A DNA stretch of 64,000 nt from Candidatus Latescibacterota bacterium (GTDB lineage Bacteria; Latescibacterota; UBA2968; GCA-2709665): the NCBI GenBank assembly GCA_965222075.1, contig OZ244937.1, forward strand, positions 5,216,001-5,280,000, given 5' to 3'. This document shows positions 4,733 through 40,348 of the stretch, piece by piece. Below the pieces are notes generated by a model. That model was not told the DNA's origin, did no database searches, and worked only from the letters and a program-made list of their open reading frames with translations. The position numbers were made by a program, and so were the translations under genes. How positions within the stretch are numbered: the first letter of the stretch is position 1; every line of letters begins with the position of its first letter.

Positions 4733-7700
4733 ATGGCTGAGAACAGGAAGTCCCCATTGAGTGCTGGAATCGCCATCAGGGAAGGACAGGTTCTCACCGG
4801 TCCGCTGTTCAGCGAGCCGATGCAGGTGGAGACTGTTCGCTCAAACGGGCCTGACGTCTGGGTCGCGGGCCTCGTCGGTCAGCGATCTGAACGGTTCCGC
4901 CGGGTCACGCTCACGTCAGACGATATTTCCAACCTGACCATCGCCGACTCCGCTCTTTCCTACGATGGCGATGGGCGGCTTCTGCGGATCGGCCTCCAGG
5001 CCTATACGCTCGGTATCGCCTACGAGTTCGATCCCTATTTCGGGCTTTCCATCTCGCGCGTGGACCCGCTGCCGCACCAGCTCGAAGCGGTCTACGAGCA
5101 CCTGCTCAAGCTGCCCAGCGTGCGCTTTCTGCTCGCCGACGATGCGGGTGCGGGCAAGACCATCATGGCGGGTCTCCTGGTGCGTGAGCTCAAGCTTCGG
5201 GGTCTCATCGAACGCGTCCTGGTGGTATGCCCCGCGAACCTGACGTTTCAGTGGCAGCGGGAACTCAAGGAAAAGTTCGACGAGAAGTTTATCGTGTTCA
5301 AGGGCAGCGACATCCGCGACCAGTTCGGGGTCAACCAGTGGCTGGAGCAGAAGCAGGTCATCACCTCGCTCGACCTGGCCAAGCGTACCGAGATCCTGCC
5401 CGGACTGGCGCAGGTGCGCTGGGATCTGGTGATCGTTGATGAGGCGCACCGCATGTCGGCACGCGACGAGACCCACAAGAGCCAGCGCTACCGGCTGGGG
5501 GAGCTGCTGCGTGACAGTTCCGATCACGTGCTTCTGCTGACCGCCACGCCACACAAGGGCGACCCACAGAACTTCACGCTGTTCCTGCAGCTGCTGGACC
5601 GGGACGCTTATGCGGACGTGAGATCGATCCACGAGGCGATGGAACGACGGCGAGCGCCTTTCTACCTGCGTCGAACCAAGGAGGCGATGGTCCATTTTCC
5701 GGAGCCCCAGGAGAACGGAGGGTGGACCGCGAAGCCGGTATTCACCAGGCGTATCCCGCGCACGGCTGCCTTCAATATCGATGGTCCCGAGTTCGCGCTC
5801 TACGACAGGATCACGCGGTTCGTGAAACGGCAGAGCACCCGTGCAGCCGCACAGGGCGACGATCCGAGGGCGCGGGCCGTCGGATTCCTGATGGCGCTCT
5901 ACCAGCGGCGCCTCGCTTCCAGCACGTACGCGATGCGGCGGTCGCTCGAGAACCGGGCAAGGCGTCTGAAGGAGGGACTCAAGCGCGCGCAGGATCTGGT
6001 GCGGACTGCGCCCCCGGACCTTCCCGATCCGGAAGATCTCGATGAGCTTGAGGACGCCGAGCGCGAGCGCCTGGAGAGGATGCTGGAGGCGATCACGCTG
6101 GCCGGCAATGCCGAGCAGGTCCGTGACGAGATCGCCGAACTCCTGGAACTTGCCGAAGAGGCGAAGGTTGTCGAGGGCGCGGGTAGTGAGGCGAAACTGG
6201 GCCATCTGCGGGAGATCATGCAGGATGAGGGATTCTTCGACCGGCGTGACCAGCGACTGCTGATCTTCACCGAGTTCAAGGATACGCTCGACCACCTGAT
6301 GGAGCATTTGAAAGCCTGGGGCTTCAGCGTCGGCTGCATCCACGGCGGGATGAAGCCTGGCTCGCGTGACGAACCGGGAAGCCGGCTCCATACCGAACAG
6401 CAATTCCGCGAGGGCGCCATCCAGGTTCTGGTGGCCACCGAGGCGGCCGGCGAAGGCATCAACTTGCAGTGCTGCCACATCCTCTTCAACTACGATATCC
6501 CGTGGAACCCGAACCGGCTCGAACAGCGCATGGGCCGCATCCACCGCTACGGACAGCACCACGATTGTTTGATCTTCAACTTCGTGGCGAGCAACACCAT
6601 TGAGGGACGGGTGCTGCAGCGTCTCTTATACAAGCTCCAGGAGATCCGCGACGCCCTTGATGACGACGCGGTGTTTAACGTGGTGGGAGAGGTCTTGCCG
6701 TCCGCCCACGTGGAGCGCGTGCTGCGGGACTACTACGCGGGGAAGCTGGGCGACGCCGATCTTGAAGAGCGGCTCTTGAAGGATGTGGATGAAGGCCACT
6801 TCCGGGCCATCTGCCAGACGGCGCTGGAGGGCCTGGCCGCCAAGAGGCTCAACCTGGACATGCTCATCGAGCGCCGGGCACGGGCACAGGAGCGGCGCGT
6901 GGTGCCCGAGACCCTCGCGCGGTTCATTTGCGAGTGCGCCCGGGATGCGGCGCTGGCTCTGAAGCCGGTGAGCCGCCTGGCGCATACGTATGAGCCGGGG
7001 CGGACGCCGTCCGGCTTGAAGAAGTACGAGCGCGAAGCGGATTGGAAGCTCCCGGAATTGGCGGTCCGTTATCCGCGCCTGTCGACCGACCGCAACACAG
7101 CGGAGGAGCACAACCTCGAGTGGGTGACCCCCGGGCATCCGCTGTTCGAGGCCCTGCGCCGGCACAGTCTCGAACTGGGTCAGGACGCCTTCACCAGGGG
7201 CGCGTGCTTCTATTCTCTTGCGCACGAAGCGCCGGCGCGTCTCGACTTCTACCGGGCGCGGGTCGTGGATGGTCTTGGACAGGTTATCCACGAACGGCTG
7301 TTCACCGTAGAGCTGAATGGTGACGGTTCCCCCGGTCTTTGTGAGCCGGATGTCCTGGGCAATCTGACTCCCACCCCTGCACCGGATGGCTTGCCCGCCG
7401 TGGCCTCGCTGCCGGAAGACACGGCCTGGCTGAACGAGCACGCGCTGCTCCCGTTCATCGACGAGGTGCGCGCAGAGCGTCTGGCCGAGGTCGAGCGCAT
7501 TGCCGAGCACGTCGAGCTTTCCTTGACCGAGGTGCTGCAGCGGATCGATGAAGAGATCGGCCGTGCCGCCGAGGAGGTGGAGAATGACGTGACCGGCGCC
7601 GAGGGCCGCCTGGCGCAAGCCGAAACCCGGCATGCCGAGGTGATGGTGCGCCGCGAGCACCGACGTGAGGAACTCAAGCAGCAGCGGGCGGTAACGCTGC

Positions 7701-8224: not shown

Positions 8225-8432
8225 TTGAGGCCTGGTACCAATGCACTATCCTCCAGACACCGTCTGGAATTTCACCAACCCTAACGGAGTGGTCAGTCGC
8301 GTCAGCAATTTGCCAGACACCGTCTGGCGAATTGGAGATCACCCCTCCAGTCGGAATCCGCAGACAGGGTCTGCAGAATTGTCGTTGGGCAGCATTACGT
8401 TGCACTTTCCGCTTCCCTGGTCCGCCTACGTC
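8225..8432 (+). pseudogene. DUF1016/YhcG internal fragment 1
   Basis: ILQTPSG...ICQTPSGE and FPLPWSAYVR, the same motifs as the larger fragment at 13005-13430. Confidence 0.7.
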
Positions 8433-8440
8433 CGGAGGCT

Positions 8441-8839
8441 ATGCCAATGGAAGCAAAACTGAAACATCTCGAATTCATCCAGGGCGTAATCAACCGCCTC
8501 GCCACCGACTCGTTCCGTATGAAGGGATGGGCTGTGGTCTTAGTCTTAGTCTCGGCGATTCTCGTCGTGCTGGCGAAGGAAGGTCGCGTTGAGTTCGCCT
8601 ACATTGGCTTCGTCCCAGCGCTTGTCTTCTGGGGCCTCGACGGCTACTTCCTCTGGCAGGAACGTCTGTTTCGAGACCTTTACGACCACGTCCGAGTTCT
8701 GGACGAAGCGGATATCGATTTCTCGATGGAAACGGCCGCCTCCAAAAGAACCTGGCTCGGTGCGACATTCTCAAGAACACTGTACCCCTTCTATATCGCG
8801 TTGGCTCTCCTGGTCGGTGCCGCGATGATCATTAGCTAA
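8441..8839 (+). CDS. Small multi-pass membrane protein, probable effector partner of a TIR-domain gene
   Basis: KHLEFIQGVINRLA.DSF.MKGW then hydrophobic helices, LDGYFLWQERLFR.LY; directly followed by a TIR-like gene start. Confidence 0.7.
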   Translation: MPMEAKLKHLEFIQGVINRLATDSFRMKGWAVVLVLVSAILVVLAKEGRVEFAYIGFVPALVFWGLDGYFLWQERLFRDLYDHVRVLDEADIDFSMETAASKRTWLGATFSRTLYPFYIALALLVGAAMIIS

Positions 8840-8860: not shown

Positions 8861-8995
8861 ATGGCACGCAGAGTGTTCTACAGCTTTCACTACAAACCTG
8901 ACAACTGGCGGGCCGAAGTGGCAGCCGAGCGCTCCGAGAGTCTTCAGCGCGCGATCCATTGTCTACGGAAACTCGTCGATACCGCCGGTGACTAA
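8861..8995 (+). pseudogene. Chimeric 44-codon deletion scar: ThsB/DUF1863 TIR-like N-terminus fused to a DUF4276-like C-terminus
   Basis: Reads MARRVFYSFHYKPDNWRA|EVAAERSESLQRAIHCLRKLVDTAGD*; AGGAG upstream. The TIR-like head is well recognisable; the tail assignment is weaker. Confidence 0.6.
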
Positions 8996-9170
8996 GGCCG
9001 AATTGCTCGAACTGATCCGCCGTGGTGGGGGCTCGACTCTGGCATTCAAACGAGAGGGGGTGCAAGCCCACGATGTTGCGAGAGCGGTGGTGGCGTTTGT
9101 CAACATGGCCGGCGGTACGGTTCTGATTGGCGTCGAGGAAGGGAGCGTTTCCGGCGTGACTCGTGACCGC
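8988..9170 (+). pseudogene. AlbA_2/Schlafen-domain gene 5' fragment
   Basis: MTKAELLELIRRG..STLAFKREGVQAHD.A...VAFVN..GG.VLIGVE aligns with the N-terminus of 16307..17536, then similarity stops. Confidence 0.8.
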
Positions 9171-9250
9171 CGTGCGTGGTGCGTGTCGAGGAGGATAAGT
9201 GATCACGGATTCATGCAGCAACATCTCGAGTGTTGAAAAGGAATTTGAAG

Positions 9251-10618
9251 ATGGCAAAGCATCGAACATCAAAAAATGATCCAAAAGAAGACCAGAATGA
9301 AGGTATCACTGCAATCTCGGTGCAGGGCTTCAAGTCGCTTGCTGAAGCAAGCCGGATTGAAATTCGTCCGCTGACGATCCTGGCAGGTGCGAACAGTTCC
9401 GGCAAATCGAGTATTATGCAGCCTCTGTTGCTGATGAAGCAGACCCTTGAAGCCAGTTATGACCCCGGACCACTTCTGCTAAATGGACCGAATGCGAAAT
9501 TTACGTCCTTCAACCAATTCATTTCGCGTTCACAGAAAGATTCTGATGGCCAGGCATTCAGCGTTGAAATAGGGTACGCGTATAGGACGCTTAAAGTTGC
9601 GTTTGCTCTCACCGAAGAACAGACGCTTGAAATCCGAGATATGATCATTGGAGAAGGCGAAAGTTCTCTTCATTTGATGCCACACCAAAGGGCAGATGAT
9701 TTAGAGAAGGCGATCTCAAAATTTGTTCCAAAGGAAAAAAAATGGCTTAAGTTACCAGAAGGGATTCAGTGGGCGGTTTTTAGAGATCGGTGTTTTCTTA
9801 ACATCACTATCGAGATCCTCGAGGGTAAGGGGGAATTTGTCTTTACCAGAGCTGTCAATCCGGAACTACTTTCTACAATACTTACTACTATATTTTCTAC
9901 TACTGATGAAGAGCTACACCGCATGATTCACGTCCCTGGTTTCCGTGGCAACCCCGAGCGCGCCTATAAGGTAACAACCCCCGGCCCTGATTTCCCAGGC
10001 ACATTTGAACATTATGTCGCCACGATCATTGCACATTGGCAGGCAGAACATGACGGTCGTGTCAAAATGCTTGCGGACTTACTTGCAGACCTTGGCCTAA
10101 CCTGGAAAGTTTCTGCCAGGTCCGTTGATGATACGCAGATTGAATTGCAGGTTGGACGCCTTCCACAACCAGAGTTGGCAGACGATCTGGTAAGTATCGC
10201 TGACGTTGGCTTTGGCGTCTCACAAGTGTTGCCCGTGCTTGTTGCGCTTCTAATTGCTGAGCCGGGACAACTTGTATATCTCGAACAACCGGAATTGCAT
10301 TTGCACCCGCGAGCGCAGTATGGACTGGCGAAAATTCTGGTAGAGACGGCAAAGCGCGGCGTGAAATTGGTCGTGGAGACACATAGCACGTTGTTGTTAC
10401 TACAAGTGCAGACGTTGGTGGCGGAGGGTGATCTCGATCCTGATTTGGTGAAGCTACACTGGTTCTCACGCAACCCCAAAGATGGAACGACATCGATTCA
10501 GAGTGCTGATCTGGATGAAAATGGCGCTTTTGGGGATTGGCCGGAGGACTTTGGCGATGTCGAGTTGATGGCTGAAGGCGCGTATCTGGATGCGATGGAA
10601 GAGCGGAGCAAACAATAA
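9251..10618 (+). CDS. ABC/AAA_15-type ATPase with C-terminal DUF3696-like domain
   Basis: GFKS, Walker A GANSSGKS, DVGFGVSQVLP, Walker B LEQPELHLHP, ETHS, G.FGDWPEDF.D. Confidence 0.85.
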   Translation: MAKHRTSKNDPKEDQNEGITAISVQGFKSLAEASRIEIRPLTILAGANSSGKSSIMQPLLLMKQTLEASYDPGPLLLNGPNAKFTSFNQFISRSQKDSDGQAFSVEIGYAYRTLKVAFALTEEQTLEIRDMIIGEGESSLHLMPHQRADDLEKAISKFVPKEKKWLKLPEGIQWAVFRDRCFLNITIEILEGKGEFVFTRAVNPELLSTILTTIFSTTDEELHRMIHVPGFRGNPERAYKVTTPGPDFPGTFEHYVATIIAHWQAEHDGRVKMLADLLADLGLTWKVSARSVDDTQIELQVGRLPQPELADDLVSIADVGFGVSQVLPVLVALLIAEPGQLVYLEQPELHLHPRAQYGLAKILVETAKRGVKLVVETHSTLLLLQVQTLVAEGDLDPDLVKLHWFSRNPKDGTTSIQSADLDENGAFGDWPEDFGDVELMAEGAYLDAMEERSKQ

Positions 10619-11139
10619 TGACACAGCAGCGTCTTCGGCGATTGGTGATTGATGCCGATGTTGCGCATTCTGCGGGTGAATCGGAGCATCCGATTTCAAG
10701 TGCGTGTCGGAGGTTTTTGGAGACAGTGTTGCGTGTTGGACACTATGTTGTGATGACAGAGGCGATACAGGAAGAGTGGCGTCGCCACATATCCAAATAT
10801 TCGAAAAGATGGCGTAGGCGAATGTACGGGCGAAAGTTGGTTATACGGATCGAGGTCGATGAAGATGAGACCTTGCGAGGACGCATTGATGCGGCTGTGC
10901 ACTGGGATCAGAAGGCGATTGTTGCTAAAGATGTCCATCTCATTGAAGCGGCGATTGCGACGGATCGGCTGGTTACTTCCCGAGATAAAGAAGCACGCGA
11001 GGCATTTGGAAATGCGTCGGATAACGTAGGAGAATTGAGACAAATTGTGTGGGTCAATCCGACGCAGGCCGACGAAAAGCCTATTGACTGGCTGCGGAAT
11101 GGTGCAAAGACTGAAGCGCATCGTCAGTTAGGTGCCTGA
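10618..11139 (+). CDS. PIN-like protein translationally coupled to the ATPase
   Basis: LVIDADV, KDVHLIEAA, VTSRD acidic motif pattern; TAATG stop/start overlap. Confidence 0.65.
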   Translation: MTQQRLRRLVIDADVAHSAGESEHPISSACRRFLETVLRVGHYVVMTEAIQEEWRRHISKYSKRWRRRMYGRKLVIRIEVDEDETLRGRIDAAVHWDQKAIVAKDVHLIEAAIATDRLVTSRDKEAREAFGNASDNVGELRQIVWVNPTQADEKPIDWLRNGAKTEAHRQLGA

Positions 11140-11182: not shown

Positions 11183-11437
11183 TGAAGGAATTCTATCAAG
11201 TGTGGTCAGCTGAACAGATTCTTCAGACACCGTCTGAAATATCGCAGGTTCTGACTGAATGGGCTATGGATGTAGCAATTCTCCAGACAGCGTCTGGCAA
11301 ATTTGATACCACTTCCACCTGAAGTACGCCTGGGGGAGCTCCTCGCGGTCTTTCCACTCCCCTGGTCCGTCTACGTGCGGCTGCTGTCGGTCAAGGACGA
11401 GCGCGCCCGCGAGTTCTACGAAGCCGAGGCGCTGCGC
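11183..11437 (+). pseudogene. DUF1016/YhcG internal fragment 2
   Basis: EFYQVWSAEQILQTPSE...FPLPWSVYVRLLSVKDERAREFYEAEALR with a frameshift; about 110 bp nearly identical to 13285-13397. Confidence 0.8.
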
Positions 11438-11793: not shown

Positions 11794-11926
11794 ATGATCC
11801 CCCGCGACTGCAAACGCCTCGCCGAGGTCTCGAAGCACGCCGCGCGGGAGAAGTCGATTCGACACGGGCATCCCTCGACGCTGCATCTGTGGCGGGCGCG
11901 GCGGCCGCTGGCTTCGAGCCGGGCGG
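11794..11926 (+). repeat. DUF1156 methylase 5'-head anchor copy A (21-nt internal deletion)
   Basis: [12 protein letters not shown]|[32 protein letters not shown] matches 30478 onward; DFPIAEV lost between two GCCGAGGT repeats. Confidence 0.9.
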
Positions 11927-12076: not shown

Positions 12077-12334
12077 ATGAGTTCCACCGTCACTGTCCGC
12101 GACATCGACCCGGCGGACAAAGCTTGGCTCAAACGGGAAGCGCGCCAAGTCGGCGTTTCTATGGAAGAGTTCATCCGCCGTCTGATCCGCGAGAAGCGCG
12201 CCAGGGCCGAGCGCCGCGCGACGCCTTCCGAGGCTTTCAGGCGGTATTTCGGACCCGAGCACGGGGTCGAGCTGCCGGAGCCTGGGCGCTACGCATACCG
12301 GAAGGTCGAGTTCGCCGGTGAGAGCGAGACGTGA
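12077..12334 (+). CDS. FitA/RHH-like antitoxin
   Basis: TVTVRDID...KAWLKREA...GVSMEEFIRRLI...FGPEHGVEL; RBS AAGGAG; overlaps the VapC start. Confidence 0.8.
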   Translation: MSSTVTVRDIDPADKAWLKREARQVGVSMEEFIRRLIREKRARAERRATPSEAFRRYFGPEHGVELPEPGRYAYRKVEFAGESET

Positions 12335-12556
12335 ACGCGCCTGTTGCCTGGCTCCTCGATGCGAATGTCGTATCGGAGATGATGCGCCCGCATCATGGAA
12401 GAGAAGCGGCGGCGAGGCGAGGCGCTCGAAGACCACCTGCCGGACGCCTTTCTCGCGGCAACGGCAGCCCGGCTCGGTCTCACCATCGTCACGCGAAACG
12501 CAAGTGAATTCCGCAACACCGGCGCTGAAGTCGTCGATCCGTGGGCCGGTGGATGA
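12331..12556 (+). pseudogene. VapC (PIN) toxin with large internal deletion/frameshift
   Basis: WLLDANVVSEMMRP joined out of frame to DAFLAATAARLGLTIVTRN..EF...G.EVVDPW*. Confidence 0.85.
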
Positions 12557-12602
12557 CGGTTCAGAGATCGGTTGCAATGAACATGAGACGAAAAGCAGCA
12601 CG

Positions 12603-12926: not shown

Positions 12927-12938
12927 TGCCCTGAAGCA

Positions 12939-12998
12939 CCTGCCTGCGCAGTGCCCCCTGCTTGCGCGCAGCGCGCAGGCAAGTGCGCTGCAGGCAGG
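12939..12998. repeat. Nested CCTGCCTG...CAGGCAGG palindromic element
   Basis: Outer CCTGCCTGCGCA...GCTGCAGGCAGG encloses inner CCTGCTTGCGCGCAGCGCGCAGGCAAG. Confidence 0.7.
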
Positions 12999-13004
12999 CC
13001 GGAT

Positions 13005-13430: not shown

Positions 13431-13441
13431 ACTTGTGCGGT

Positions 13442-28691: not shown

Positions 28692-28693
28692 CG

Positions 28694-30436: not shown

Positions 30437-30477
30437 ACGCTCCAAGGAAACAATAAAGTGATTTGGAACGCGGCAGC

Positions 30478-33459
30478 ATGATCCCCAGAACCTGCAAACG
30501 CCTCGCCGAGGTGGACTTCCCGATTGCCGAGGTTTCCAGGCATGCGGCCCGGGAGAAGTCGATTCGGCACGGGCATCCCTCGACGCTGCACCTGTGGTGG
30601 GCGCGGCGGCCGCTGGCCTCGTCGCGGGCGGTGCTGATGGCGTTGCTGCTGCCGGACCCGTGTGACCCGCACTGCCCGGAGGCGTTCAAGCAGAAGGCCC
30701 GCCAGATTCTCCTCAAGATGGACGGGCGGCCGCAAGGGTGGACAACGGCTATCGAACCGGATGAGGGATTGCGGCGGATCATGCTGAAGTTCATCGCCGA
30801 CTTCGCCAATTGGGATCTTGCCGCGAATCGCGCCTATCTCGACGTGAGCCGTGCACTTGTGAAGGCTGCGCATGGCGAGGAGTCGCCGCTCGTGGTGGAC
30901 CCGTTTGCGGGCGGGGGTTCGATTCCGCTGGAGGCGCTGCGGCTCGGTTGCGAGGCGTTCGCCAGCGATCTGAATCCGGTGGCGTGCCTGATTCTGAAGG
31001 TGATGCTGGAGGACATCCCGCGCCACGGACCGGGGCTGGCTGAGGAACTGCGCCAGGTCGGCGGCGAGATCAAGCGGCAGGCCGAGCAGGAACTGGCAGA
31101 TCTCTATCCGGTGGACTTGGACGGGGCGACGCCGATTGCCTATCTCTGGGCGCGGACGGTGCGTTGCGAAGCGCCCAACTGCGGCGCGGAGATTCCGTTG
31201 ATGCGTTCGTTCTATCTGTGCAAGAAGCCCAAACGCAAGTGGGCGTTGCGGCACCGGATCGAGCGATCCGAGGGGGAGCCACCGAGCGTCGAGTTTGAGG
31301 TGTTCGAGCCGAAGGCTGATGGCGAGGTGCGTGGCGGCACGGTCACGCGCGCCAAGGCGACCTGCCTGTGCTGTGGCGCAGTACTGCCGCCCGAGCGGGT
31401 GCGGGCGCAGCTTGCGGCCCAACGGGGCGGCGCGGATGTGATTTTCGACGCAGAGGGCAACCGGACGGGCGGGGCGCGGATGACGGCGGTGGTGACGCTA
31501 CAGCCTGGCGTGAAGGGCCGCCACTATCGGCTACCCACTGACGAGGACTACGAGGCGGTGCGCCGGTCACAAGCGCGGCTGGCAAACATCCTTTGCGAGT
31601 GGAAGCGGGGCGGGAAACAGGGCCTTTGCCCGGTGCCGGATGAGCCGTTGCCCATTGAACGGCAGAGGGGTAGTTCAGGCTTCCGGGTATTGCTCTATGG
31701 AATGAATACGTGGGGTGATCTCTTAACGGCTCGGCAGAAGGTGGCGTTGGTGGAGTTGGGGCGGTTGACAGCTTCCGGGGAGACGCATCGACAGACTCTT
31801 TCATTGGCTCTAACTCGGGTGGCCAACGCCGGATGTTCGCTCTGTAGATGGCATACGACCAGAGAGAACCACGAGGGTGTCTTTTCCCGTCAAGCGCTTC
31901 CAATGGTCTGGGACTATAGTGAGGGCAATCCGTTTTCTGATTCAACGGGCGGATATGCTGGCGCCTTAGACTGGATTGCTAAGGTAGCTGAGGTTTGGCC
32001 TCAGTCTGACACTGGACAGATTCAACCAGCCGACGCCACCGACCACCCGTTACCCGACCAATCCGCCGGAGTCTGGTTCACCGACCCGCCCTATTACGAT
32101 GCCATTGCCTACGCAGATCTATCTGATTTCTTCTTTATCTGGCTTAAACGTGTCCTCCCACGGGATGACCCCTTGTTGCAGAATCCGTCTAACCCGAAAA
32201 ATCCTCTGTCTCCCAAACAAGAGGAAGTAATTCAGGACCCTGCTCGTTTCGTCAATGGCGCGGCCAAAGACCAGGGCTTCTATGAATCGAGAATAGCGAA
32301 GGCCTTTGCGGAGGGCTGCCGTGTTCTCCAAGAGGACGGCGTTGGCTCCGTCGTCTTCGCTCACAAAACGACCGAAGGCTGGGAGGCGCTGCTCTCCGGC
32401 ATGATCCAGGGCGGCTGGACCATCACCGGCTCCTGGCCGATTGCGACCGAGATGGGGTCCAGACTCAACGCACGCGACACCGCATCCCTCGCCACCAGCA
32501 TCCACCTGATCTGTCGCCCGCGTCCAGAAAATGCGTCGGTTGGCGATTGGGCCGATGTGCTGCGGGAACTGCCGGTCCGCGTCGGTGATTGGATGGAACG
32601 GTTGCAGAGTGAAGGGATTCGAGGTGCGGATCTGGTGTTCGCCTGCATCGGGCCGGCGCTGGAGATTTTCAGCCGCTACCGCGCAGTGGAGACTGCCGAA
32701 AGTGATACGGTCGGCCTGTCTGAATATCTGGAGAAGGTCTGGGAGGTGGTCGGCCGCGCCGCGTTGCAACAGGTGCTGGGCACGGCACAGGCCTGCCTGT
32801 CTGCCGACGAGGCAGGTGCGCTGGAAGAGGATGCCCGGCTGACCGCGCTCTTCCTCTGGACGCTCCAGAGCACGGACACCGTTGCAGAGAATCAGGAACA
32901 AGCGGACGAGGTAGGCGAGGAAGCCGTCGCCAAAGTAGCGTCGAAGGGGTTCAGCCTGCCCTTTGACGTGGTACGCCGCTTTGCCCAACCCATGGGCATT
33001 GACCTGGATACATGGAAGGACCGTATCATCGGCCAGGAAAAGGGCGTGGTGCGCCTGTTGCCAGTGGCCGAGCGGGCCGGGGAACTCTTCGGCGAGGATG
33101 GCGCTGCCGCCGCGGCTGACTGGATCGAGAGCGACCCGCATGCCGACGTGCAGCAGACGCTTTTTTCCGACTGGCAGGACAGCGCGCCTGCAATCGTCCG
33201 GGAGCCGCGGCCGCGATACGGCGAAGCATCCGACGAATACCCCGCTTCGACTCTTGGCGACACCACCCTCGACCGCGTCCACACCGCCATGCTGTTCCAG
33301 GCCAGCGGTCACGCCAATGCGCTGCGGAAGCTGATTGGCACCGAGCAGGATCGCGGCCCTGACTTCCTGCGGCTTGCCAACGCGCTATCGGCCCTCTATC
33401 CTCAAGGGTCCAACGAGAAACGCCTGCTCGACGCCATGCTCCTGGCGGTACCGAGGTGA
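30478..33459 (+). CDS. DUF1156-domain adenine DNA methyltransferase; core gene 2
   Basis: LHLWWARRPL, SAM motif DPFAGGGSIP, Zn-ribbon Cys pairs, catalytic TDPPYYD. Confidence 0.92.
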   Translation: MIPRTCKRLAEVDFPIAEVSRHAAREKSIRHGHPSTLHLWWARRPLASSRAVLMALLLPDPCDPHCPEAFKQKARQILLKMDGRPQGWTTAIEPDEGLRRIMLKFIADFANWDLAANRAYLDVSRALVKAAHGEESPLVVDPFAGGGSIPLEALRLGCEAFASDLNPVACLILKVMLEDIPRHGPGLAEELRQVGGEIKRQAEQELADLYPVDLDGATPIAYLWARTVRCEAPNCGAEIPLMRSFYLCKKPKRKWALRHRIERSEGEPPSVEFEVFEPKADGEVRGGTVTRAKATCLCCGAVLPPERVRAQLAAQRGGADVIFDAEGNRTGGARMTAVVTLQPGVKGRHYRLPTDEDYEAVRRSQARLANILCEWKRGGKQGLCPVPDEPLPIERQRGSSGFRVLLYGMNTWGDLLTARQKVALVELGRLTASGETHRQTLSLALTRVANAGCSLCRWHTTRENHEGVFSRQALPMVWDYSEGNPFSDSTGGYAGALDWIAKVAEVWPQSDTGQIQPADATDHPLPDQSAGVWFTDPPYYDAIAYADLSDFFFIWLKRVLPRDDPLLQNPSNPKNPLSPKQEEVIQDPARFVNGAAKDQGFYESRIAKAFAEGCRVLQEDGVGSVVFAHKTTEGWEALLSGMIQGGWTITGSWPIATEMGSRLNARDTASLATSIHLICRPRPENASVGDWADVLRELPVRVGDWMERLQSEGIRGADLVFACIGPALEIFSRYRAVETAESDTVGLSEYLEKVWEVVGRAALQQVLGTAQACLSADEAGALEEDARLTALFLWTLQSTDTVAENQEQADEVGEEAVAKVASKGFSLPFDVVRRFAQPMGIDLDTWKDRIIGQEKGVVRLLPVAERAGELFGEDGAAAAADWIESDPHADVQQTLFSDWQDSAPAIVREPRPRYGEASDEYPASTLGDTTLDRVHTAMLFQASGHANALRKLIGTEQDRGPDFLRLANALSALYPQGSNEKRLLDAMLLAVPR
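32792..32816. repeat. Palindromic element CCTGCCTGTCTGCCGACGAGGCAGG inside the methylase ORF
   Basis: Same terminal arms as the other copies; read in frame as ACLSADEAG. Confidence 0.55.
33346..33459 (+). repeat. Methylase 3'-tail anchor, copy 1 (within the intact gene)
   Basis: QDRGPDFLRLANALSALYPQGSNEKRLLDAMLLAVPR*. Confidence 0.95.
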
Positions 33460-33505
33460 GGACATGCGACAGACGTGAACAACGTGTGAAGTTGATTCGA
33501 GACCG

Positions 33506-33817
33506 ATGCATATAGTCCCATCAAAGAACGACGTTTCAATCAGGTTGACCGAAGAGAGGTGGCGTCATGTTGCGGAGCGCCATCCCGAGATGAAGAAGCA
33601 CCGGGCGGAGGTTCTCGAGACGATTGCGGAACCGGACGTCATTCAACAGGGTGACTTCGGCGTCTTGTTGGCAGCACGTCTGTACCCCCGGACAGCGCTC
33701 ACCAGCAAGTATGTCATAGTGGCCTATCGAGAACGTGGGGAAACGGACGGCTTTGTGCTAACCGCATACTTGACCAGCCGGCCGACATCAAGGAGGAGAA
33801 TCCTATGGAAACGCTGA
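33506..33817 (+). CDS. Putative RelE/BrnT-like toxin of a DUF2283-associated pair
   Basis: IRLTEERW.H...HPE, PD.I..GD, KY..V.Y....DGFVLTAY; overlaps the DUF2283 gene. Confidence 0.65.
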   Translation: MHIVPSKNDVSIRLTEERWRHVAERHPEMKKHRAEVLETIAEPDVIQQGDFGVLLAARLYPRTALTSKYVIVAYRERGETDGFVLTAYLTSRPTSRRRILWKR

Positions 33818-34032
33818 AGATTCTGGAAAGCAAGCAGAGCCTGAACTGGGACTACGACGGCGAGGCGGATGTGCTGTACATCTCTGTCGCGTCACCGAAA
33901 CCCGCGGTGGGCATCGACGTTGGGGAGGGCGTGATCGTTCGCTACGACGAGATGCACAAGGAAGTCGTCGGTCTCTCAATCGTCGGTCTTCGCGAGAAAA
34001 TGCTGCGCGAGCTGTCGACCCGCGCGCGCTGA
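33805..34032 (+). CDS. DUF2283 family protein
   Basis: YD.EADVLYI...EGVIVRYD....VVG..I.G. Confidence 0.85.
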   Translation: METLKILESKQSLNWDYDGEADVLYISVASPKPAVGIDVGEGVIVRYDEMHKEVVGLSIVGLREKMLRELSTRAR

Positions 34033-34084
34033 GGTAGGGCCGCCGGGCCTTCGGAGCCTGGAACACTGTAGGAAGATATGAATG

Positions 34085-34281
34085 AAGAGAATGGCCAGCA
34101 GGAACAGGAAGACGAGGCCGACCTGCCTGCCAGGAAGTCTCTCGCAGGCGAGGAAGCGGTCGCCAAGCAGGATCGCGGCCCCGATTTCCTACGGCTTGCC
34201 AACGTGCTATCGGCCCTCTATCCACAGGGCTGCAACGAGAACCGCCTGCTTGACGCCATGCTGTTGGCGGTGCCGAGGTGA
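34085..34281 (+). repeat. Methylase 3'-tail anchor, copy 2 (internally deleted)
   Basis: 34085-34167 matches about 32886-32934 (QEQ.DE...GEEAVAK) and is joined to a 114-nt match of 33346-33459; contains a CCTGCCTG insert at 34122. Confidence 0.92.
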
Positions 34282-34422
34282 TGCTTGATCCAGTACTTAG
34301 GTGTGCAACAAAGGTTTGCCGAAAAAGGTTGACACGAAGCGAAAATCCCGGTTAAATACACAAATCCCGAGTCATACGAGGAGACAACATGCGTCGAATT
34401 CCAGCGGGGAGGGGTACACTCT

Positions 34423-35316
34423 ATGGCCGATGATAGGACCGCGCAACCTGCGCCACAAAAAAATCCAGCTACGAGCGATTCAATCGCGGTCGAGTGGCTT
34501 CGTTCCAAGCTCGCTGAAATTGAGAAGCATACCTGTATGGATGCGCTGACAATTTTCGGTCCGATCATGGGGTCAGTCGATCACCGCGTCAGGTTGGCGA
34601 TCGAAAGCGTGCCGGAACGCCGCGAAGGTTCGCTCGTGATCATTGATACAATTGGTGGAATCGTCGAGGTCGCCGAACGCATTGTAACCACGCTCAGGCA
34701 TTACTATAAAGAGGTGAAGTTTCTCATTCCCGATAGGGCGATGTCGGCGGGGACGGTACTCGTGATGTCTGGGGACGCAATTTTGATGGATCACTTTTCT
34801 TGTTTGGGGCCGGTTGATCCCCAGTTGGATATAGAAGGCAAACCAATCCCGATATCAGTTCTTTCTTATCTTGAACAATACGAACGCTTCGTTAAAAAAG
34901 CCGAAGAAGGCACCCTGACAAGTGCGGACTTGGTACTGCTTCAGAAACTTGATGCCGCTGATTTGCGGCAGTACGAACTGGCGGCCAAGCTATCGGTTCG
35001 ACTCATTCAAGATTGGCTTGTGACGTACAAATTCAAGGATTGGTCAACACACGGTTCTACAAAGAAAACTGTTACCCAAAAAGAAAAGGAGAAGCGTGCG
35101 GAAGAGATCGCCCAAGCACTTAACGATCAAGAAAGATGGGGCACTCATGGACGTGGAATTAATCGGGATGTTCTTGCTGAATTGAAGCTCAAAATTGATG
35201 ATTTGGAAGCCGATCCTACATTGAGCAACTTGATCAAGGAGTACTTCTGGTTTTTCAGGGATTTTGCGTTCAAGACAGAAGCGATTAGCCTAGTCCATAA
35301 CCGTTATTACTTTTGA
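34423..35316 (+). CDS. SDH/SppA-like ClpP-fold serine protease
   Basis: IDT.GG...AE.I, P.RAMSAGT...SGD.I.M...S.LGPVDPQ, W.THGRGI. Confidence 0.85.
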   Translation: MADDRTAQPAPQKNPATSDSIAVEWLRSKLAEIEKHTCMDALTIFGPIMGSVDHRVRLAIESVPERREGSLVIIDTIGGIVEVAERIVTTLRHYYKEVKFLIPDRAMSAGTVLVMSGDAILMDHFSCLGPVDPQLDIEGKPIPISVLSYLEQYERFVKKAEEGTLTSADLVLLQKLDAADLRQYELAAKLSVRLIQDWLVTYKFKDWSTHGSTKKTVTQKEKEKRAEEIAQALNDQERWGTHGRGINRDVLAELKLKIDDLEADPTLSNLIKEYFWFFRDFAFKTEAISLVHNRYYF

Positions 35317-35327
35317 AAGGAGTCCCC

Positions 35328-35549
35328 ATGCTAAAGGAACACCAACTAATGCTAACCGAAGAGCAGATCGCGAAGAATCCAGCGATCGATCCCAAGATCG
35401 TCAAAGAGGCCCTGCAAATGCGCCGAGAACTCGAAAAACTGGGAGTGTGGGAAGATAGCGGTAGTCGAGTGAGAAACCCCTTTGAAATCAAGCCTGCCTT
35501 GAATCCACGGGGACAAAGCGGGAATCGGCTCATCACGCAGAACCGATAA
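35328..35549 (+). CDS. Small hypothetical protein downstream of the protease
   Basis: AGGAG RBS, 73 codons, co-oriented 11 nt after the protease stop. Confidence 0.6.
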   Translation: MLKEHQLMLTEEQIAKNPAIDPKIVKEALQMRRELEKLGVWEDSGSRVRNPFEIKPALNPRGQSGNRLITQNR

Positions 35550-35582
35550 TTCCTATTGATGCCTAAAGCGCTCAGAAGGCAC

Positions 35583-35660
35583 ATGACCTCTTGGAAAAGG
35601 CTTTCCTTCCCACACTGCGAGATTCGTGGAAACTGTTCCTTCAACCCGACAAACTCAACC
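35583..35660 (+). repeat. Degenerate DUF499 ATPase 5'-head anchor
   Basis: MTSWKRLSFPHCEIRGNCSFNP aligns without gaps to LEPWYKIVTLRKEVREGRSFSP (W4, E13, R15, S19, F20, P22 conserved). Confidence 0.6.
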
Positions 35661-35685
35661 GTCCTTCGCCGACACTGATCGTCTC

Positions 35686-35802
35686 TGAGCAAACCTTGGT
35701 CCCGAATTCCCACATTTTGCCAAACTCCCTAACCGCCCTCTATCCTCAAGGGTGCAACGAGAAACGCCTGCTCGACGCCATGCTGCTGGCGGTACCGAGG
35801 TG
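35686..35802 (+). repeat. Methylase 3'-tail anchor, copy 3
   Basis: GCCCTCTATCCTCAAGGG..CAACGAGAAACGCCTGCTCGACGCCATGCT.CTGGCGGTACCGAGGTG is nearly identical from about 35735; degenerate upstream. Confidence 0.92.
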
Positions 35803-35805
35803 GCC

Positions 35806-37488
35806 ATGATCCGGTGCGTTACGATCAAGAATTTCAAGCGCTTCCGCAAGCAGTCGTTCGAGCTGGCGGATTCAGTCGTCCTCGCCGGGCCGAACAACGC
35901 CGGGAAGTCCACGTTGCTCCAGGCGATTGCGACCTGGAAGTTCGGGCTCGACCGATGGGTCGCTCAGCGGGTGGGGGGCAGGGCCGTTACGCGGTCCGGG
36001 ATCGCGATCCCACGCGCCGACATCACTGCGGTGCCGCTTCGGGAGATGAATCTCCTCTGGGAGGATCGCAGAGTCACCGGCCCGCGCGGCATGTCCGGGA
36101 CGCGGCGGCTGATCGAGATCGTCGTGGAAGGGCAAGCGAACGGGGAGCCCTGGACGTGTGGGATCGAACTCCAGTACGCCAATCCCGAGCTGGCGTACGT
36201 ACGGCCTCGGGATGCGAAGAGTCTGGATCGCGAAGCCTTGCGGGATTTTCCGCCGGAGGCGGCACAGCAACTCAATATCGTCCATGTCCCCCCGCTCTCG
36301 GGTATTGAGCGCGATGAGCCTCGGCGCGACCGGGGTATGCAGGACCTGCTCGTCGGCCAGGGGCGACCAGGCGAGATCCTGCGCAATCTTCTGCTGGAGA
36401 TTGCCGAGAGCAAGGATGAAGAGAGTTGGTCGTTGCTTGCGCGGCACATCCAGGACCTCTTCGGGATAGAACTGCTCAAGCCCGCCTATTCGCCGGCCCA
36501 GCCGTACATTGTGTGCGAGTACCGCGAGCCGGGGCACACCCGGCCGCTCGACCTTTCCAACGCCGGGAGCGGAACCCTGCAAGTGCTTCTCCTGTTCGCC
36601 TTCTTGTACGCCCGACCCGCCACGGTGATCCTGCTCGACGAGCCTGACGCGCACCAGCACGTCATCCTGCAACGGCAGGTGTACGACCTGATCCGCAAGG
36701 TCGCCCGCGAGCGCGGCGGGCAGGTGATCGCGGCGACGCACTCCGAAGTCGTCCTCGATGCGACGGAGCCGGCCCGGGTGATCGGGCTCTTCGGCGAAGC
36801 CCCCCGTGCACTGGCTAGCGAGACCGAGCGCAATCAGCTTCGAGAGGCGCTCAAGCGCGTCACCACGACCGATCTGTTGCTGGCTCAGGAGGTCGGGGCC
36901 GTGCTCTACGTCGAGAGCGAAACGGACGAGAGGATACTGGCGGAGTGGGCGCGGATCCTCGATCATCCGGCGCGACGCTTCTTCGAGCGGCCTTTTGTCC
37001 ACTGGCTCAGTGGCAGGAGCCTGCGCGAAGTGAGAGCACATTTCTTCGCCATGCAGGCGGTCTTTCCCGGGATGCCCGCCCTTTGTCTGCTTGATGGGGA
37101 CAATCGCGATGAGCCGGACGTAGAGACGACGCATGCCGGTCTGGTCCTGCTGCGCTGGCGTCGCTACGAGATCGAGAACTACCTTCTGCAGCCGGAGGCG
37201 ATCAAGCGATTCGTCGATTTCCCGCTGATGCAGCCAGAAATTGACGCTGCATTCTGGAGCCAGGTGCCCCAGGGGACCGACCTCTTTGGGGATCACGTCT
37301 CGCTCGTGCGCGTCAAAGCAAGCGATGAGTTCCTGGTGCCGCTGTTGGAAAATCTCGGCAGCAACACCCCCAAGAGAGATCTATATCTGCTGGCAGCCGT
37401 TATGAACAAAGACGAGATCCACCCGGAGATCCACGAGAAACTCGACCGTATCGCAGAGTCGCTCAATCCTCACGAGCCAGGGGCGTAG
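35806..37488 (+). CDS. ABC ATPase fused to TOPRIM-like nuclease (OLD/PARIS-fused-like)
   Basis: KNFKRF, GPNNAGKS, GSG..Q, LLDEPDAH, ATHS; C-terminal YVESETD, LLDGD, RYEIENYL. SD GAGGTG supplied by the methylase-tail copy. Confidence 0.85.
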   Translation: MIRCVTIKNFKRFRKQSFELADSVVLAGPNNAGKSTLLQAIATWKFGLDRWVAQRVGGRAVTRSGIAIPRADITAVPLREMNLLWEDRRVTGPRGMSGTRRLIEIVVEGQANGEPWTCGIELQYANPELAYVRPRDAKSLDREALRDFPPEAAQQLNIVHVPPLSGIERDEPRRDRGMQDLLVGQGRPGEILRNLLLEIAESKDEESWSLLARHIQDLFGIELLKPAYSPAQPYIVCEYREPGHTRPLDLSNAGSGTLQVLLLFAFLYARPATVILLDEPDAHQHVILQRQVYDLIRKVARERGGQVIAATHSEVVLDATEPARVIGLFGEAPRALASETERNQLREALKRVTTTDLLLAQEVGAVLYVESETDERILAEWARILDHPARRFFERPFVHWLSGRSLREVRAHFFAMQAVFPGMPALCLLDGDNRDEPDVETTHAGLVLLRWRRYEIENYLLQPEAIKRFVDFPLMQPEIDAAFWSQVPQGTDLFGDHVSLVRVKASDEFLVPLLENLGSNTPKRDLYLLAAVMNKDEIHPEIHEKLDRIAESLNPHEPGA

Positions 37489-37546
37489 CGATGCAAGTAA
37501 GGTGACGACCAATGGTCCCCTGGTACAGATCGAGGAGAGGTACAGA

Positions 37547-40348
37547 ATGGCGCTTGAGCCCTGGTATAAAATCGTAACGCTCCGCAAGGAAGTGCGGGAA
37601 GGCCGTTCGTTCAGCCCGGACGAGTTCGCCATCGCGATGGAACAGGTGGTCGCCAGGACCGCGCCGGAGGACTACAGCGATCCGGCGCAGTTCTTTTCGC
37701 GCACGTGCTTCACGCGTGCGTTGAAGGAGCATGCCGGTATGGTTCTTCGGCGGCTTTCCGGCAAGACCGGGAACACGGCGCCGGTTCTGACGCTGATCAC
37801 CCAATTCGGCGGTGGCAAGACGCACACCCTCACCGCGCTTTATCACCTCGCCAACGCTGGCGCGGAGGCGTCCAGGTTCCCCGGTGTGGCCGATCTGCTG
37901 ACTGAGGCCGGGATAGCAGAAGTACCCTCTGCCCGCGTGGGCGTCTTTGTGGGCAATGCCTGGGACCCGGCGGAGGGGCGGGAGACGCCCTGGATTGATC
38001 TGGCTCGCCAGCTGGCGGGCGAGCAGGGTGTTGCCGCGCTTGGCGCTGCTGCGCGGACCACACCGCCGGGAACCGAGGCACTGGCCAGGGTGTTCGCGGC
38101 TGCGGAGGCGCCCGTGTTGCTGCTGTTCGACGAGGTGCTCAACTTTGTCAACCGCCACCGGGGCATGGCCGAGGGCTTCCACGCCTTCCTTCAGAACCTG
38201 ACCGTCGCCGTCACCGGTACGACCCGGGCGGCTGCGATTATCAGCCTGCCGCGCAGCCAGGTGGAAATGACCGATTGGGATCAGCAGTGGCAGGACCGGA
38301 TTACCAAGGTGGTCCGCCGCGTCGCGCGCGACCTGATCGCCAATGACGAATCCGAGATCAGCGAGGTGGTGCGCCGGCGGCTGTTCGAGGATCTCGGCAA
38401 AGCGCGCATTCGCAAGAGAGTCGCCAGGATCTACGCGGACTGGTGCTTTGAACGGACCGCCCGCCTGCCCTCCGAGTGGCTGGCGGTGGATACCGCGACG
38501 ACGGAGGGCAGGGCGAGAGAGTTTCTGCGGGGCCGATTCGAGGCGTGCTATCCGTTCCATCCTGCGACCCTTTCGGTTTTTCAGCGGAAGTGGCGCGCGC
38601 TACCCCAGTTTCAGCAGACCCGGGGCGCGCTGGCCATGCTGGCGCAATGGATCTCCTGGGCCGCGCACGAGCAGTTTAAGAAGGCGCGCACGGAGCCGCT
38701 GATTACGCTGGGGTCGGCGCCGCTGGACGTTTCCGAGTTTCGTGCCGTGGTCCTGGGCCAGTTGGGTGAATCCAGGCTGGATGCGGCGATTGATGCCGAT
38801 CTCGCGGGGCCGATGGCGCATGCCAGATCCCTGGATGTGGACGCTAAGGGGGCTCTGCGCGATATCCACCGCCGCGTGGGCACGGCGATCCTGTTCGAGT
38901 CCTCCGGTGGACAGGTGGACAAGGTGGCCCACCTGCCGGAGTTGCGCTTCGCGCTTGGCGAGCCCGAGGTCGATACGACGACGATTGACAATGCTGCGAC
39001 GGACCTGGAAAGGTCCGGGTTCTTCATCCGCAGGGTCGGGACGGACGGCTATCGCATCCATCACCAGGCGACCTTGAAGAAGGTCGTCAGTGACCGGCAG
39101 GCATCGCTCGATGAAGACACGGAGATCAGGCCGGCGATCCGCAAGCTCATCGAGGATGCGTTCAAATCCGGCGCAACCCTTCCGGTTGTTTGCTTCCCGG
39201 GGGATAGCACCGAGGTCCAGGATTCGCCGAGTCTAAAGCTGATCGTCCTCGACCCCGAGACCGGGTGGACGCCCGTCAGCCAGGTGAGCGAGCGCATCGG
39301 CAATTGGACCACGGAGCGGGGCAATTCGCCACGGCTTTACCCGGGTTCGCTGGTCTGGTGTGCGAGAAAACCGGGGCGGGAGCTTCGCCAGAAGGTTGAG
39401 TTGTGGCTCGCGTGGCAGCGCGTGGCTGGCGAGGTGGCCGAGGGCGTTCTCGGCGCGGAATTCGACCGCGCGGATCGTGTGGGAGTTCAAGCACAGGTCA
39501 GAGACGCGCATGAAGCGGCCAGGGACGAAGTATGGGCGAGCTATCGCTTCGCAGTGCTGGGGGACAGCCAGGAGGAGCATGGGCTCAAGACCATTGACCT
39601 CGGCGCCGGCCACGCAAGTACAGGTGAGACCCTGTGCGGACGGATTATCGGCGCGTTGAAGGCCGAGGCCCTGCTCAACGAGTCCGTTGGGGCGGGCTAT
39701 ATTGACCGACATTGGCCGCCGGCGTTAAAGGAATCCGGGGCCTGGCCTCTCACCAGCCTGCGTCAAAGCTTCCTGAATGGATCGCTCACACGGCTGATTG
39801 ACCCGGACGCGATCCTTCGCCGCAAGATCGTTGAGTTCGTGGGAAGTGGAGATTTCGGCCTGGCATCCGGTGCGAAGGATGACGGTCAATATGAGCGGCT
39901 GTGGCATGCGGAGTCAATCGGGGTCGAGGAAGTGGCGTTTGAGGCCCGTGTGTTTTTGTTGACCAAAGCCAAAGCCGAGGAACTCAAAACGACACCTGAA
40001 GATCCGCCACAGCCGCAACCGGAGCCTGCGCCAGGTCCAGTCCCGGAACCCGAGCCGGAGCCTGAACCGGGAGCCGGTCCCGAGCCGAGTCCGGGCACTC
40101 AGAAAACAACACTTCGGCTTTCCGGCACCGTTCCCCCCGAGGTCTGGAACCGGCTTGGAACCAGGCTATTGCCCAAGCTGCGCTCCGGGGACGACCTCAG
40201 CGTGGGTATTGACTTCTGCGTGAGTGTCGGCTCGGCGTCCGCCAGGAACCTGGAGGAAGAGCTGCAGCAGATTCTGGATGATCTCAGGCTGGGCGACCGG
40301 GTTCGTGTCGAAAGATCCGAAACGAAAGGGTCGAGAAATAACGAATGA
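37547..40348 (+). CDS. DUF499 AAA+ ATPase; core gene 3
   Basis: PW....R.EVREG, TQFGGGKTH, LLLFDE, VRRRLFE, YPFHP, FQQTRG.L; Pro/Glu-rich linker near the C-terminus. Confidence 0.92.
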   Translation: MALEPWYKIVTLRKEVREGRSFSPDEFAIAMEQVVARTAPEDYSDPAQFFSRTCFTRALKEHAGMVLRRLSGKTGNTAPVLTLITQFGGGKTHTLTALYHLANAGAEASRFPGVADLLTEAGIAEVPSARVGVFVGNAWDPAEGRETPWIDLARQLAGEQGVAALGAAARTTPPGTEALARVFAAAEAPVLLLFDEVLNFVNRHRGMAEGFHAFLQNLTVAVTGTTRAAAIISLPRSQVEMTDWDQQWQDRITKVVRRVARDLIANDESEISEVVRRRLFEDLGKARIRKRVARIYADWCFERTARLPSEWLAVDTATTEGRAREFLRGRFEACYPFHPATLSVFQRKWRALPQFQQTRGALAMLAQWISWAAHEQFKKARTEPLITLGSAPLDVSEFRAVVLGQLGESRLDAAIDADLAGPMAHARSLDVDAKGALRDIHRRVGTAILFESSGGQVDKVAHLPELRFALGEPEVDTTTIDNAATDLERSGFFIRRVGTDGYRIHHQATLKKVVSDRQASLDEDTEIRPAIRKLIEDAFKSGATLPVVCFPGDSTEVQDSPSLKLIVLDPETGWTPVSQVSERIGNWTTERGNSPRLYPGSLVWCARKPGRELRQKVELWLAWQRVAGEVAEGVLGAEFDRADRVGVQAQVRDAHEAARDEVWASYRFAVLGDSQEEHGLKTIDLGAGHASTGETLCGRIIGALKAEALLNESVGAGYIDRHWPPALKESGAWPLTSLRQSFLNGSLTRLIDPDAILRRKIVEFVGSGDFGLASGAKDDGQYERLWHAESIGVEEVAFEARVFLLTKAKAEELKTTPEDPPQPQPEPAPGPVPEPEPEPEPGAGPEPSPGTQKTTLRLSGTVPPEVWNRLGTRLLPKLRSGDDLSVGIDFCVSVGSASARNLEEELQQILDDLRLGDRVRVERSETKGSRNNE

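Follow-up and report, generated by a model that had tools for sequence, protein, structure and literature searches.

Hma operons and the locus under study

Hma operons, in which defence genes are embedded between the core genes in the same orientation as these, have been described by Payne et al. (bioRxiv 10.1101/2024.01.29.577857). That survey admitted at most three embedded genes per slot, a slot being the space between two neighbouring core genes, and loci with pseudogenes or with repeated hma genes were removed; owing to this limit and these filters, arrays of the kind described here would drop out of it. As to mechanism, the available part of the text goes no further than the term 'genomic sink', and the words recombination, fragment and truncated are absent from it. 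Under the name of a type-1 BREX-related system, the same operon has been treated in another paper (PMC12839542) as a core locus that houses 'backup effectors', and the available part of that paper holds nothing on core-gene fragments or on the route by which the effectors enter. In this study an Hma operon located in contig OZ244937.1 of assembly GCA_965222075.1 (positions 5,216,001-5,280,000) is compared with these systems; this whole stretch of 64,000 nt is referred to as the window, coordinates without a prefix are positions in it, and those with the prefix G000:C1 refer to the contig of the source genome. In its two slots, truncated copies of core-gene ends, here called scars, alternate with complete accessory genes, here called cargo. 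The embedding of genes in Hma is already published, whereas the core-end scars and the additive stacking of cargo were not found in print, as a sequence-only reading of the window had also supposed when it knew of no description of such an architecture. The literature search returned no report on either feature in Hma, and loci of this kind may be among those tabulated in the supplement to Payne et al.

A second point of comparison is the insertion of restriction-modification genes with long target duplication and without a mobility gene (Furuta, Abe and Kobayashi 2010, PMC2853133). There, the insertions are characterised by direct repeats of more than 30 bp, a single copy of the repeat at the empty site and the lack of a mobility gene, and one pair of loci related to the window, L015 and L013, fits this description exactly. 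The window differs from it in several respects: its repeats are the operon's own core-gene ends, their identity is 82-92% and thus short of near-identity, they occur again and again in series, and two or more of them come from other alleles instead of representing a duplicated target.

The core genes of the window lie on one strand in the order hmaA, hmaB, hmaC, and the operon spans 36 kb. Domains and systems were assigned by Pfam scans and PADLOC models. HmaA (4733-8209, + strand) is an intact SNF2 helicase of 1158 aa with Helicase_C and NOV_C domains (Pfam SNF2-rel_dom, Helicase_C and NOV_C; PADLOC HmaA E 2.9e-172, spanning aa 59-1099). HmaB (open reading frame, ORF, 30463-33459, + strand) is an intact DUF1156 N6-adenine methyltransferase (PADLOC E 1.8e-115; Pfam DUF1156 E 1.3e-22), and HmaC (ORF 37502-40348, + strand) is an intact DUF499 ATPase (PADLOC E 3e-97, spanning aa 16-860; Pfam DUF499 E 1.6e-12). 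Since relatives align only from aa 5-6 of the hmaB ORF and from aa 15-18 of the hmaC ORF, the genes are likely to start at 30478 and 37547, respectively. Full-length alignments to 80 relatives show a single intact copy of each core gene in the window, all other copies being fragments. Judged from its sequence, the locus is an Hma (type-1 BREX-related) defence operon with a predicted anti-phage role. It has the same three core genes as the Hma loci of Payne et al., and some of its cargo matches candidate families named there (HEC-03B-like, PDC-S09); it differs from them in a first slot of 22.3 kb that carries core-end scars.

The source genome also encodes a second, distant DUF1156 methylase (G000:C1:1437383-1440181, locus L107; 30-35% identity), where the helicase follows the methylase instead of preceding it, so that the genome holds a BREX-related arrangement of another kind as well.

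Core-gene ends and cargo in the two slots

Slot 1, between hmaA and hmaB, measures 22,253 nt, and slot 2, between hmaB and hmaC, measures 4,042 nt, in agreement with the sequence-only reading, in which the three intact core genes were placed about 22 kb and 4 kb apart. For comparison, related loci, designated by L numbers, were collected in two sets: 80 loci from many phyla, with 59-78% identity, obtained by scanning genome contigs with HmaB, and 17 loci obtained by scanning metagenomes with SIR2. In the 80 loci of the HmaB set, the median length is 1,564 nt for slot 1 (n=64; the largest measurable one is 10.8 kb) and 935 nt for slot 2 (n=70; the largest is 7.4 kb).

Searches of the window with the HmaA, HmaB and HmaC proteins by tblastn revealed six strong copies of core-gene ends (tblastn E 3e-10 to 1e-47), and two weak copies missed by tblastn were recovered by targeted alignment. 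Slot 1 contains methylase head fragment 1 (11794-11925, HmaB aa 6-56; tblastn 80%, E 7e-17), helicase tail fragment 1 (13442-13540, HmaA aa 1113-1145; 76%, E 2e-11), a degenerate and frameshifted methylase head remnant (17543-17604, approximately aa 14-36), methylase head fragment 2 (27166-27447, HmaB aa 6-99; 88%, E 1e-47) and helicase tail fragment 2 (27434-27568, HmaA aa 1106-1150; 58%, E 3e-10). The local nucleotide score of the remnant is 41-48, compared with a mean of 18 (standard deviation 2.1, maximum 26) in 200 shuffles, and methylase head 2 is an open frame with 90.4% nucleotide identity to 30478-30758 (281 nt). Slot 2 contains methylase tail fragment 1 (34162-34281, HmaB aa 960-998; tblastn match 34162-34278, 87%, E 2e-15), a degenerate HmaC head remnant (about 35556-35650, approximately aa 6-39) and methylase tail fragment 2 (35675-35802, HmaB aa 957-998; tblastn match 35675-35800, 69%, E 1e-10). 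The BLOSUM62 score of the HmaC remnant, 54, was reached by none of 200 shuffles (shuffle maximum 45), and its E value was 8e-4 in a small flank search. All eight copies are on the + strand, each within the slot bounded by its parent gene, so the eight copies listed in the sequence-only reading are present with the orientation and confinement claimed for them, two of them as short degenerate remnants. The core-end repeats that bound the units are 62-282 nt long. Tail fragments overlap the start of the following cargo gene: helicase tail 1 that of the PHP-ATPase ORF, helicase tail 2 that of the SIR2 gene, and methylase tail 2 that of the next ATPase gene.

A stray open frame resembling a methylase head occurs elsewhere in the source genome (G000:C1:699538-699744, minus strand, L106; HmaB aa 12-86 at 54-61% identity in a 115-aa frame), and neither a further Hma gene nor any cargo of the window lies within 15 kb of it; the relatives G003, G009, G057 and G058 contain comparable isolated heads or tails.

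The cargo beside these fragments forms four clear units. The first combines a PHP-ABC ATPase (932 aa, Ppl-like; PADLOC Ppl E 2.6e-39) with an AlbA_2/HATPase_c_4 protein (409 aa) of the AlbA/Schlafen type (13500-17536, + strand; Pfam, PADLOC). The second consists of adjacent SIR2 (380 aa; PADLOC E 7.9e-141) and HerA (604 aa; PADLOC E 8.1e-230) genes with overlapping ORFs (27549-30436, + strand), that is, a SIR2-HerA defence pair according to PADLOC. In slot 2, a ClpP-like SDH serine protease (297 aa) is followed by a 78-aa ORF (34423-35549, + strand; Pfam), and downstream lies an ABC ATPase of the OLD/AriA/GajA kind (578 aa; 35752-37488, + strand; Pfam, PADLOC). The units thus exist as the sequence-only reading had described them, apart from the label TOPRIM for the last ATPase, which was not confirmed, the best Pfam hint being DUF4435 at E 0.23.

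Each of these units also occurs in the same slot beside intact core genes elsewhere, as that reading had expected of cargo carried singly. In L037, L065 and L038 (3 of the 80 loci), the space between helicase and methylase holds no cargo other than the PHP-ATPase and AlbA pair, and the pair is also present in L018, after an intact helicase, and in L011. The protease directly follows an intact methylase in L011, L018 and L051, and the OLD-like ATPase does so in L020, L068 and L056 (3 of the 80 loci in either case); the segment 34161-35571 is collinear with the intact methylase end and cargo of L011 (87%) and of L018 (84%). SIR2-HerA was found in none of the 80 loci from the HmaB scan and in three of the 17 metagenome loci, where it lies between helicase and methylase either directly (L093, L094) or with 1.5 kb of extra DNA (L089); none of these loci carries extra scars. 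Compared with relatives, the cargo genes are full length and the core-end copies are truncated. The metagenome records L102-L105 (8001-11503) share one identical arrangement: a helicase fragment (aa 566-1138) is preceded, at a distance of 1.2 kb, by a truncated SIR2 (aa 7-170), which makes the whole an oddly rearranged remnant of Hma.

The origin of the fragments is most evident for the helicase tails. Helicase tail 1 is 91% identical to the tail of L010 and 94% identical to that of L018, compared with 83% to the resident tail, and in both L010 and L018 the PHP-ATPase, or what remains of it, lies behind the helicase tail. For helicase tail 2, blastn gives no match in the resident tail, and the best DNA match is L023 (81%). 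These comparisons clearly mark the two helicase tails as foreign to the resident gene. For the methylase fragments the picture is less specific: methylase head 2 is 90.6% identical to L021, to which the resident head is 88.4% identical, a difference too small to pick a donor. The ratio pN/pS against the resident genes, computed on short stretches, is 0.14 for methylase tail 1 (pS 0.34), 0.36 for methylase head 2 and 0.37 for helicase tail 1. The divergence is mostly synonymous (pS 0.18-0.34, with low pN/pS) and fits divergence that took place inside still-working genes.

Scars are not restricted to the window. When the end peptides of all alleles were used as queries, and 10 loci were excluded where the 'extra' match was a true core-gene end, additional core-end fragments were detected in 18 of the 80 loci (two of them on one weak match), every fragment being + stranded and confined to its own slot; on this sequence comparison, the pattern generalises to about a fifth of related loci. 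Scarred loci have longer slots than unscarred ones, with medians of 2869 and 1463 nt for slot 1 and of 2162 and 934 nt for slot 2, these being plain medians of mutually related loci. In the pair L015/L013 the insertion can be compared with its empty site: L015 carries an insert of 1.46 kb (a 359-aa ATPase and a 55-aa ORF) that is flanked by a perfect 70-nt direct repeat starting at the hmaC start codon, the site is empty in L013, and the flanks are 90-91% identical on both sides. A weak match resembling a helicase tail, located in L015 on the 3' side of its HmaC head fragment (small database, E 0.003), found no support when inspected. For the window itself, no relative with an empty site was found among 60 relatives, and the one same-genus genome (94% complete, 320 contigs) gave no match to the query.

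Proposed growth of the slots and alternative explanations

Our results suggest, with moderate confidence, that the two slots grew serially and in one orientation by adding the slot content of different Hma alleles through recombination with the resident operon. An incoming, non-identical Hma allele would recombine with the resident operon, and in each event one crossover would be homologous and located inside a conserved core gene, while the other would join the sequences illegitimately through a few bases of microhomology. Because one crossover is homologous and the other is illegitimate, cargo would be added beside the old cargo instead of replacing it; the truncated core-gene end would stay behind as a scar, and later deletions would trim the scars and part of the cargo. 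Completion by a homologous crossover, the direction of transfer and the dispensability of a dedicated enzyme are parts of this scheme that we infer.

The one junction resolved to base level lies at 27440-27447, where the homology to the methylase head ends and that to the helicase tail begins. As only 3-5 nt of microhomology are shared, the join is read as illegitimate. This order, in which a head of the downstream gene comes first and a tail of the upstream gene second, recurs in slot 2 (HmaC head remnant and methylase tail 2) and, in frame, in L077. Homology-facilitated illegitimate recombination, in which a one-sided homologous anchor and a microhomology join add foreign DNA, is said to have been reported in transformable bacteria by de Vries and Wackernagel in 2002. 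The illegitimate junction of the window resembles it in its 3-5 nt of microhomology, and we know of no description of this process as a driver of defence-operon growth.

A number of observations weigh against serial addition or narrow its reach. The four strong methylase fragments, heads 1 and 2 together with tails 1 and 2, are as close to the resident gene as to any foreign allele, and methylase tail 1 has a higher identity to resident-like alleles (88-90%) than to the tail of the protease-bearing L011 (82.5%). A descent of helicase tail 2 from the SIR2-HerA-bearing L093 or L094 is not supported either, L023 being closer, in a small sample where the SIR2 genes share only 72-80% identity. The sequence-only reading had proposed that each unit is the slot content of a relative's allele, added rather than swapped, and named as a check whether its flanking fragment best matches an allele bearing the same cargo. 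The proposal is backed by the occurrence of all four units beside intact core genes and by the foreign helicase tails, and it is not backed by the four methylase fragments; the check comes out in its favour for helicase tail 1 (L010/L018), and for helicase tail 2, in the small sample, and methylase tail 1 it does not. Furthermore, the left ends of methylase-tail fragments fall within about 30 nt in five of seven independent fragments, a clustering that random illegitimate joining does not predict. Trimming may have halted at cargo expression signals, or a cargo promoter in the tail may have been selected for. Cargo genes, too, contain breakpoints, to judge from the remnant of an AlbA head, three DUF1016 remnants and, in L010, a PHP-ATPase head remnant, so the process is not specific to core-gene ends. 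Other kinds of turnover are visible in relatives: L035 and L036 are 96-97% identical in helicase and HmaC and more than 15% different in the methylase and both slots, which is a segment swap, and between L029 and L053 there are indels, without repeats, immediately behind the stop codons of helicase and methylase, which is scar-free turnover.

Short-read contigs do not add support at the resolved junction. Logan contigs from four public runs (three studies) were aligned to 16201-36200, and among the longest pieces listed for the four runs no contig bridges 27440, the contigs ending near 27207-27237, a further point on the opposing side. A contig joint from 27024 to 30478 occurs in X1 and X2; its depth of 2-3 and its side of 26 put it below the reliability guide, and it could represent a form without SIR2-HerA. 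Contig depth in X5 and X6 is 0-1.7 over 27540-29540 compared with 8-27 over 24205-26872, missing cover that is not counted as evidence.

The first alternative is that whole Hma operons were gained in tandem and that deletion between core genes followed, with the cargo and the head-then-tail junction surviving. Tandem core genes with internal joins are present among the relatives: L043 has two Hma operons in a row, with HmaC truncated at aa 590, followed after 17 nt by helicase aa 587-698 and then by a second methylase, and L024 has in order a helicase, methylase A, a helicase-tail fragment and methylase B. The microhomology junction is equally compatible with deletion. On the other hand, the window would require at least three to four gains of whole operons, each with a deletion of about 9-10 kb, and the 1.46 kb insert that distinguishes L015 from L013, with equal divergence of both flanks, shows no trace of a second operon. 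We consider this route unlikely as the explanation for the window.

The second alternative is a dedicated or semi-regular cassette mechanism, in which tail-cargo-head circles would be excised between core-end repeats and re-inserted by homology, in the manner of an integron without an integrase. Integron cassette arrays are one-orientation stockpiles of promoter-proximal, mostly defence-related or accessory modules with repeated boundary sequences, and the window resembles them as a one-orientation stockpile of modules with repeated boundaries. Units with both the tail of the upstream gene and the head of the downstream gene occur in both slots, the PHP-ATPase and AlbA unit has both scars also in L011, which is labelled as a different lineage, and both the clustered starts of methylase-tail fragments and the perfect repeat of L015 would agree with a regular process. 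However, the boundaries of the window are coding-gene ends of variable length, and the resolved junction shows microhomology instead of a specific site. No junction of the PHP-ATPase unit is common to L011 and the window, the left boundary being at helicase aa ~1084 in L011 and ~1113 in the window, and head fragments end anywhere from aa 36 to aa 99. Breaks also fall within cargo genes, as noted above, and no circular junction was seen in the contigs, a kind of data that would not reveal one. Sliding-window identity along the methylase end and cargo of cargo-sharing loci revealed a hypervariable region that precedes the stop by 200-350 nt and a conserved stretch over roughly the final 150 nt, with no sharp common recombination boundary. 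Pfam scans of 28 ORFs in 734-43791 (small ORFs and the region 45-64 kb being outside the scan) detected no tyrosine or serine recombinase, in keeping with the absence of an integrase that the sequence-only reading had noted; the only recombinase found was the DDE_5 transposase of an unrelated insertion sequence. A mechanism of this kind therefore has only a small probability in our judgement.

The sequence-only reading had gone further in this direction and regarded the core-gene ends as integron-like capture anchors, which exceeds the evidence in view of the microhomology join, the breaks in cargo, the segment swaps, the scar-free indels, the four methylase fragments that are no closer to another allele than to the resident copy, and a low-GC block of about 8.7 kb in slot 1 with nested insertion elements, the genes of which match none of the 80 loci. 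In its widest form, the idea is that the conserved ends of hmaA, hmaB and hmaC are universal attachment sequences that need no recombinase, and that tail-cargo-head units are portable across unrelated phyla and pile up in one locus, possibly via circles. We regard this as a doubtful, though not negligible, proposition; if it were true, Hma would amount, for anti-phage genes, to an equivalent of the integron that works through homology.

According to the third alternative, the resident slot ends were duplicated locally in tandem and then diverged, and the cargo arrived by unrelated routes. Methylase head 2 is closest to the resident head over its 281 nt, and methylase tail 2 shares 92% identity with the resident tail over its final 86 nt. 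Because the resident copy is as close as the foreign alleles, local duplication may still account for the four methylase fragments. For the helicase tails, which are foreign by sequence comparison, it is unlikely. Moreover, synonymous divergence of 0.18-0.34 with low pN/pS is unlike that of a decaying local copy, and each fragment adjoins cargo that it borders in other loci, so that as a general explanation local duplication appears improbable. Least probable of all is an assembly artefact in which strain variants of a hypervariable locus were concatenated: the source is apparently a metagenome, the public runs hold variants such as one without 19824-23734, and the listed short-read contigs end inside the methylase head, but the source genome is a single contig of 5.36 Mb, the join between methylase head and helicase tail contains no repeat able to mislead an assembler, and the same kinds of scars are present in 18 other assemblies.

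Further genes of the slots and significance of the scars

The remaining part of slot 1 contains cargo and remnants that recur in relatives. Directly 3' of the helicase lies a DUF1016-like remnant (8248-8435, + strand) that matches 11218-11312 and 13352-13382 in the self-blastn, and a second DUF1016 remnant (11218-11437, + strand) was identified by self-blastn and by matches in relatives; the remnants match DUF1016 regions in L077, L010, L014 and L060. A palindrome of about 25 nt (8353-8379 in the window, 2264-2290 in L011) is common to the DUF1016-derived remnants 3' of the helicase in several loci and, from its sequence, may be a terminator. The next ORF (132 aa, 8441-8839, + strand) has no Pfam match and is unassigned to a family; a counterpart with 75-77% identity is located shortly 3' of the helicase end in L016 and L064. 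It is followed by the AlbA gene head remnant (8994-9139, + strand), which is 73% identical over 146 nt to 16313-16458 in the self-blastn. An ABC ATPase (462 aa, AAA_15/AAA_21) with a 173-aa partner (9230-11139, + strand) is NsnB/HEC-03B-like according to Pfam and PADLOC, and the same pair is present in L014 (65-68% amino acid identity), where a methylase-head fragment lies about 0.4 kb downstream. The FitA-like RHH gene, the nucleotidyltransferase gene (PDC-S09-like) and the DUF1016_N gene at 12077-13496 (+ strand; Pfam, PADLOC) have the same order in L010 and L014. A DUF5677 gene (26357-27169, + strand; Pfam) precedes methylase head 2, and in L051 and L011 its counterpart stands directly 5' of the intact methylase.

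The low-GC block (17605-26356, approximately 8.7 kb, 40-52% GC) was delimited by composition. It includes an ABC-2 membrane gene (18323-19819), nested mobile elements (19824-23734, recognised by Pfam and contig joints) and a HEAT-repeat gene (23935-25890). Within the nested elements, a DDE_5 insertion sequence of 1950 bp (19956-21905, minus strand) sits in a partial left-end copy of a second element (about 1.74 kb, with a 518-aa ORF), a 99% identical copy of which is found at G000:C1:4162841-4164577. The 518-aa ORF has no significant Pfam family (UPF0236 at E 0.15). Contig joints from 19823 to 23735, with 3.9 kb missing, and from 19955 to 21906, with the insertion sequence missing, were observed in all four public runs. 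None of the 80 related loci matches the ABC-2, HEAT or 518-aa genes. Since the HEAT-repeat protein matches PADLOC HEAT-ARM_XIII (E 8.6e-42), the block may also hold defence-related cargo.

At the beginning of slot 2, two small overlapping ORFs of 103 and 75 aa (33506-34032, + strand) may form a toxin-antitoxin-like pair, as far as their sequences indicate: the second is a DUF2283 protein (Pfam E 4e-7), and the first has a weak match to PBECR2 (E 0.056) and is carried by none of the 80 related loci. On the 3' side of the operon there is a tandem gene duplication (45801-47199 and 47376-48765) with copies of about 1.4 kb each that are 76% identical.

The embedding of defence genes has been published for Hma, BREX, DISARM and type I restriction operons, and the route by which they enter has been left open ('genomic sink'). 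The scars in the window provide a readable record of that route: cargo travels with the neighbouring core-gene ends and can be added as well as exchanged. Through such addition one operon can become a multi-system defence island without an integrase. Searches for embedded genes that limit slot size or discard loci with pseudogenes miss the richest arrays, and the core-end fragments themselves could be used as markers that delimit cargo units and order the events of their acquisition.

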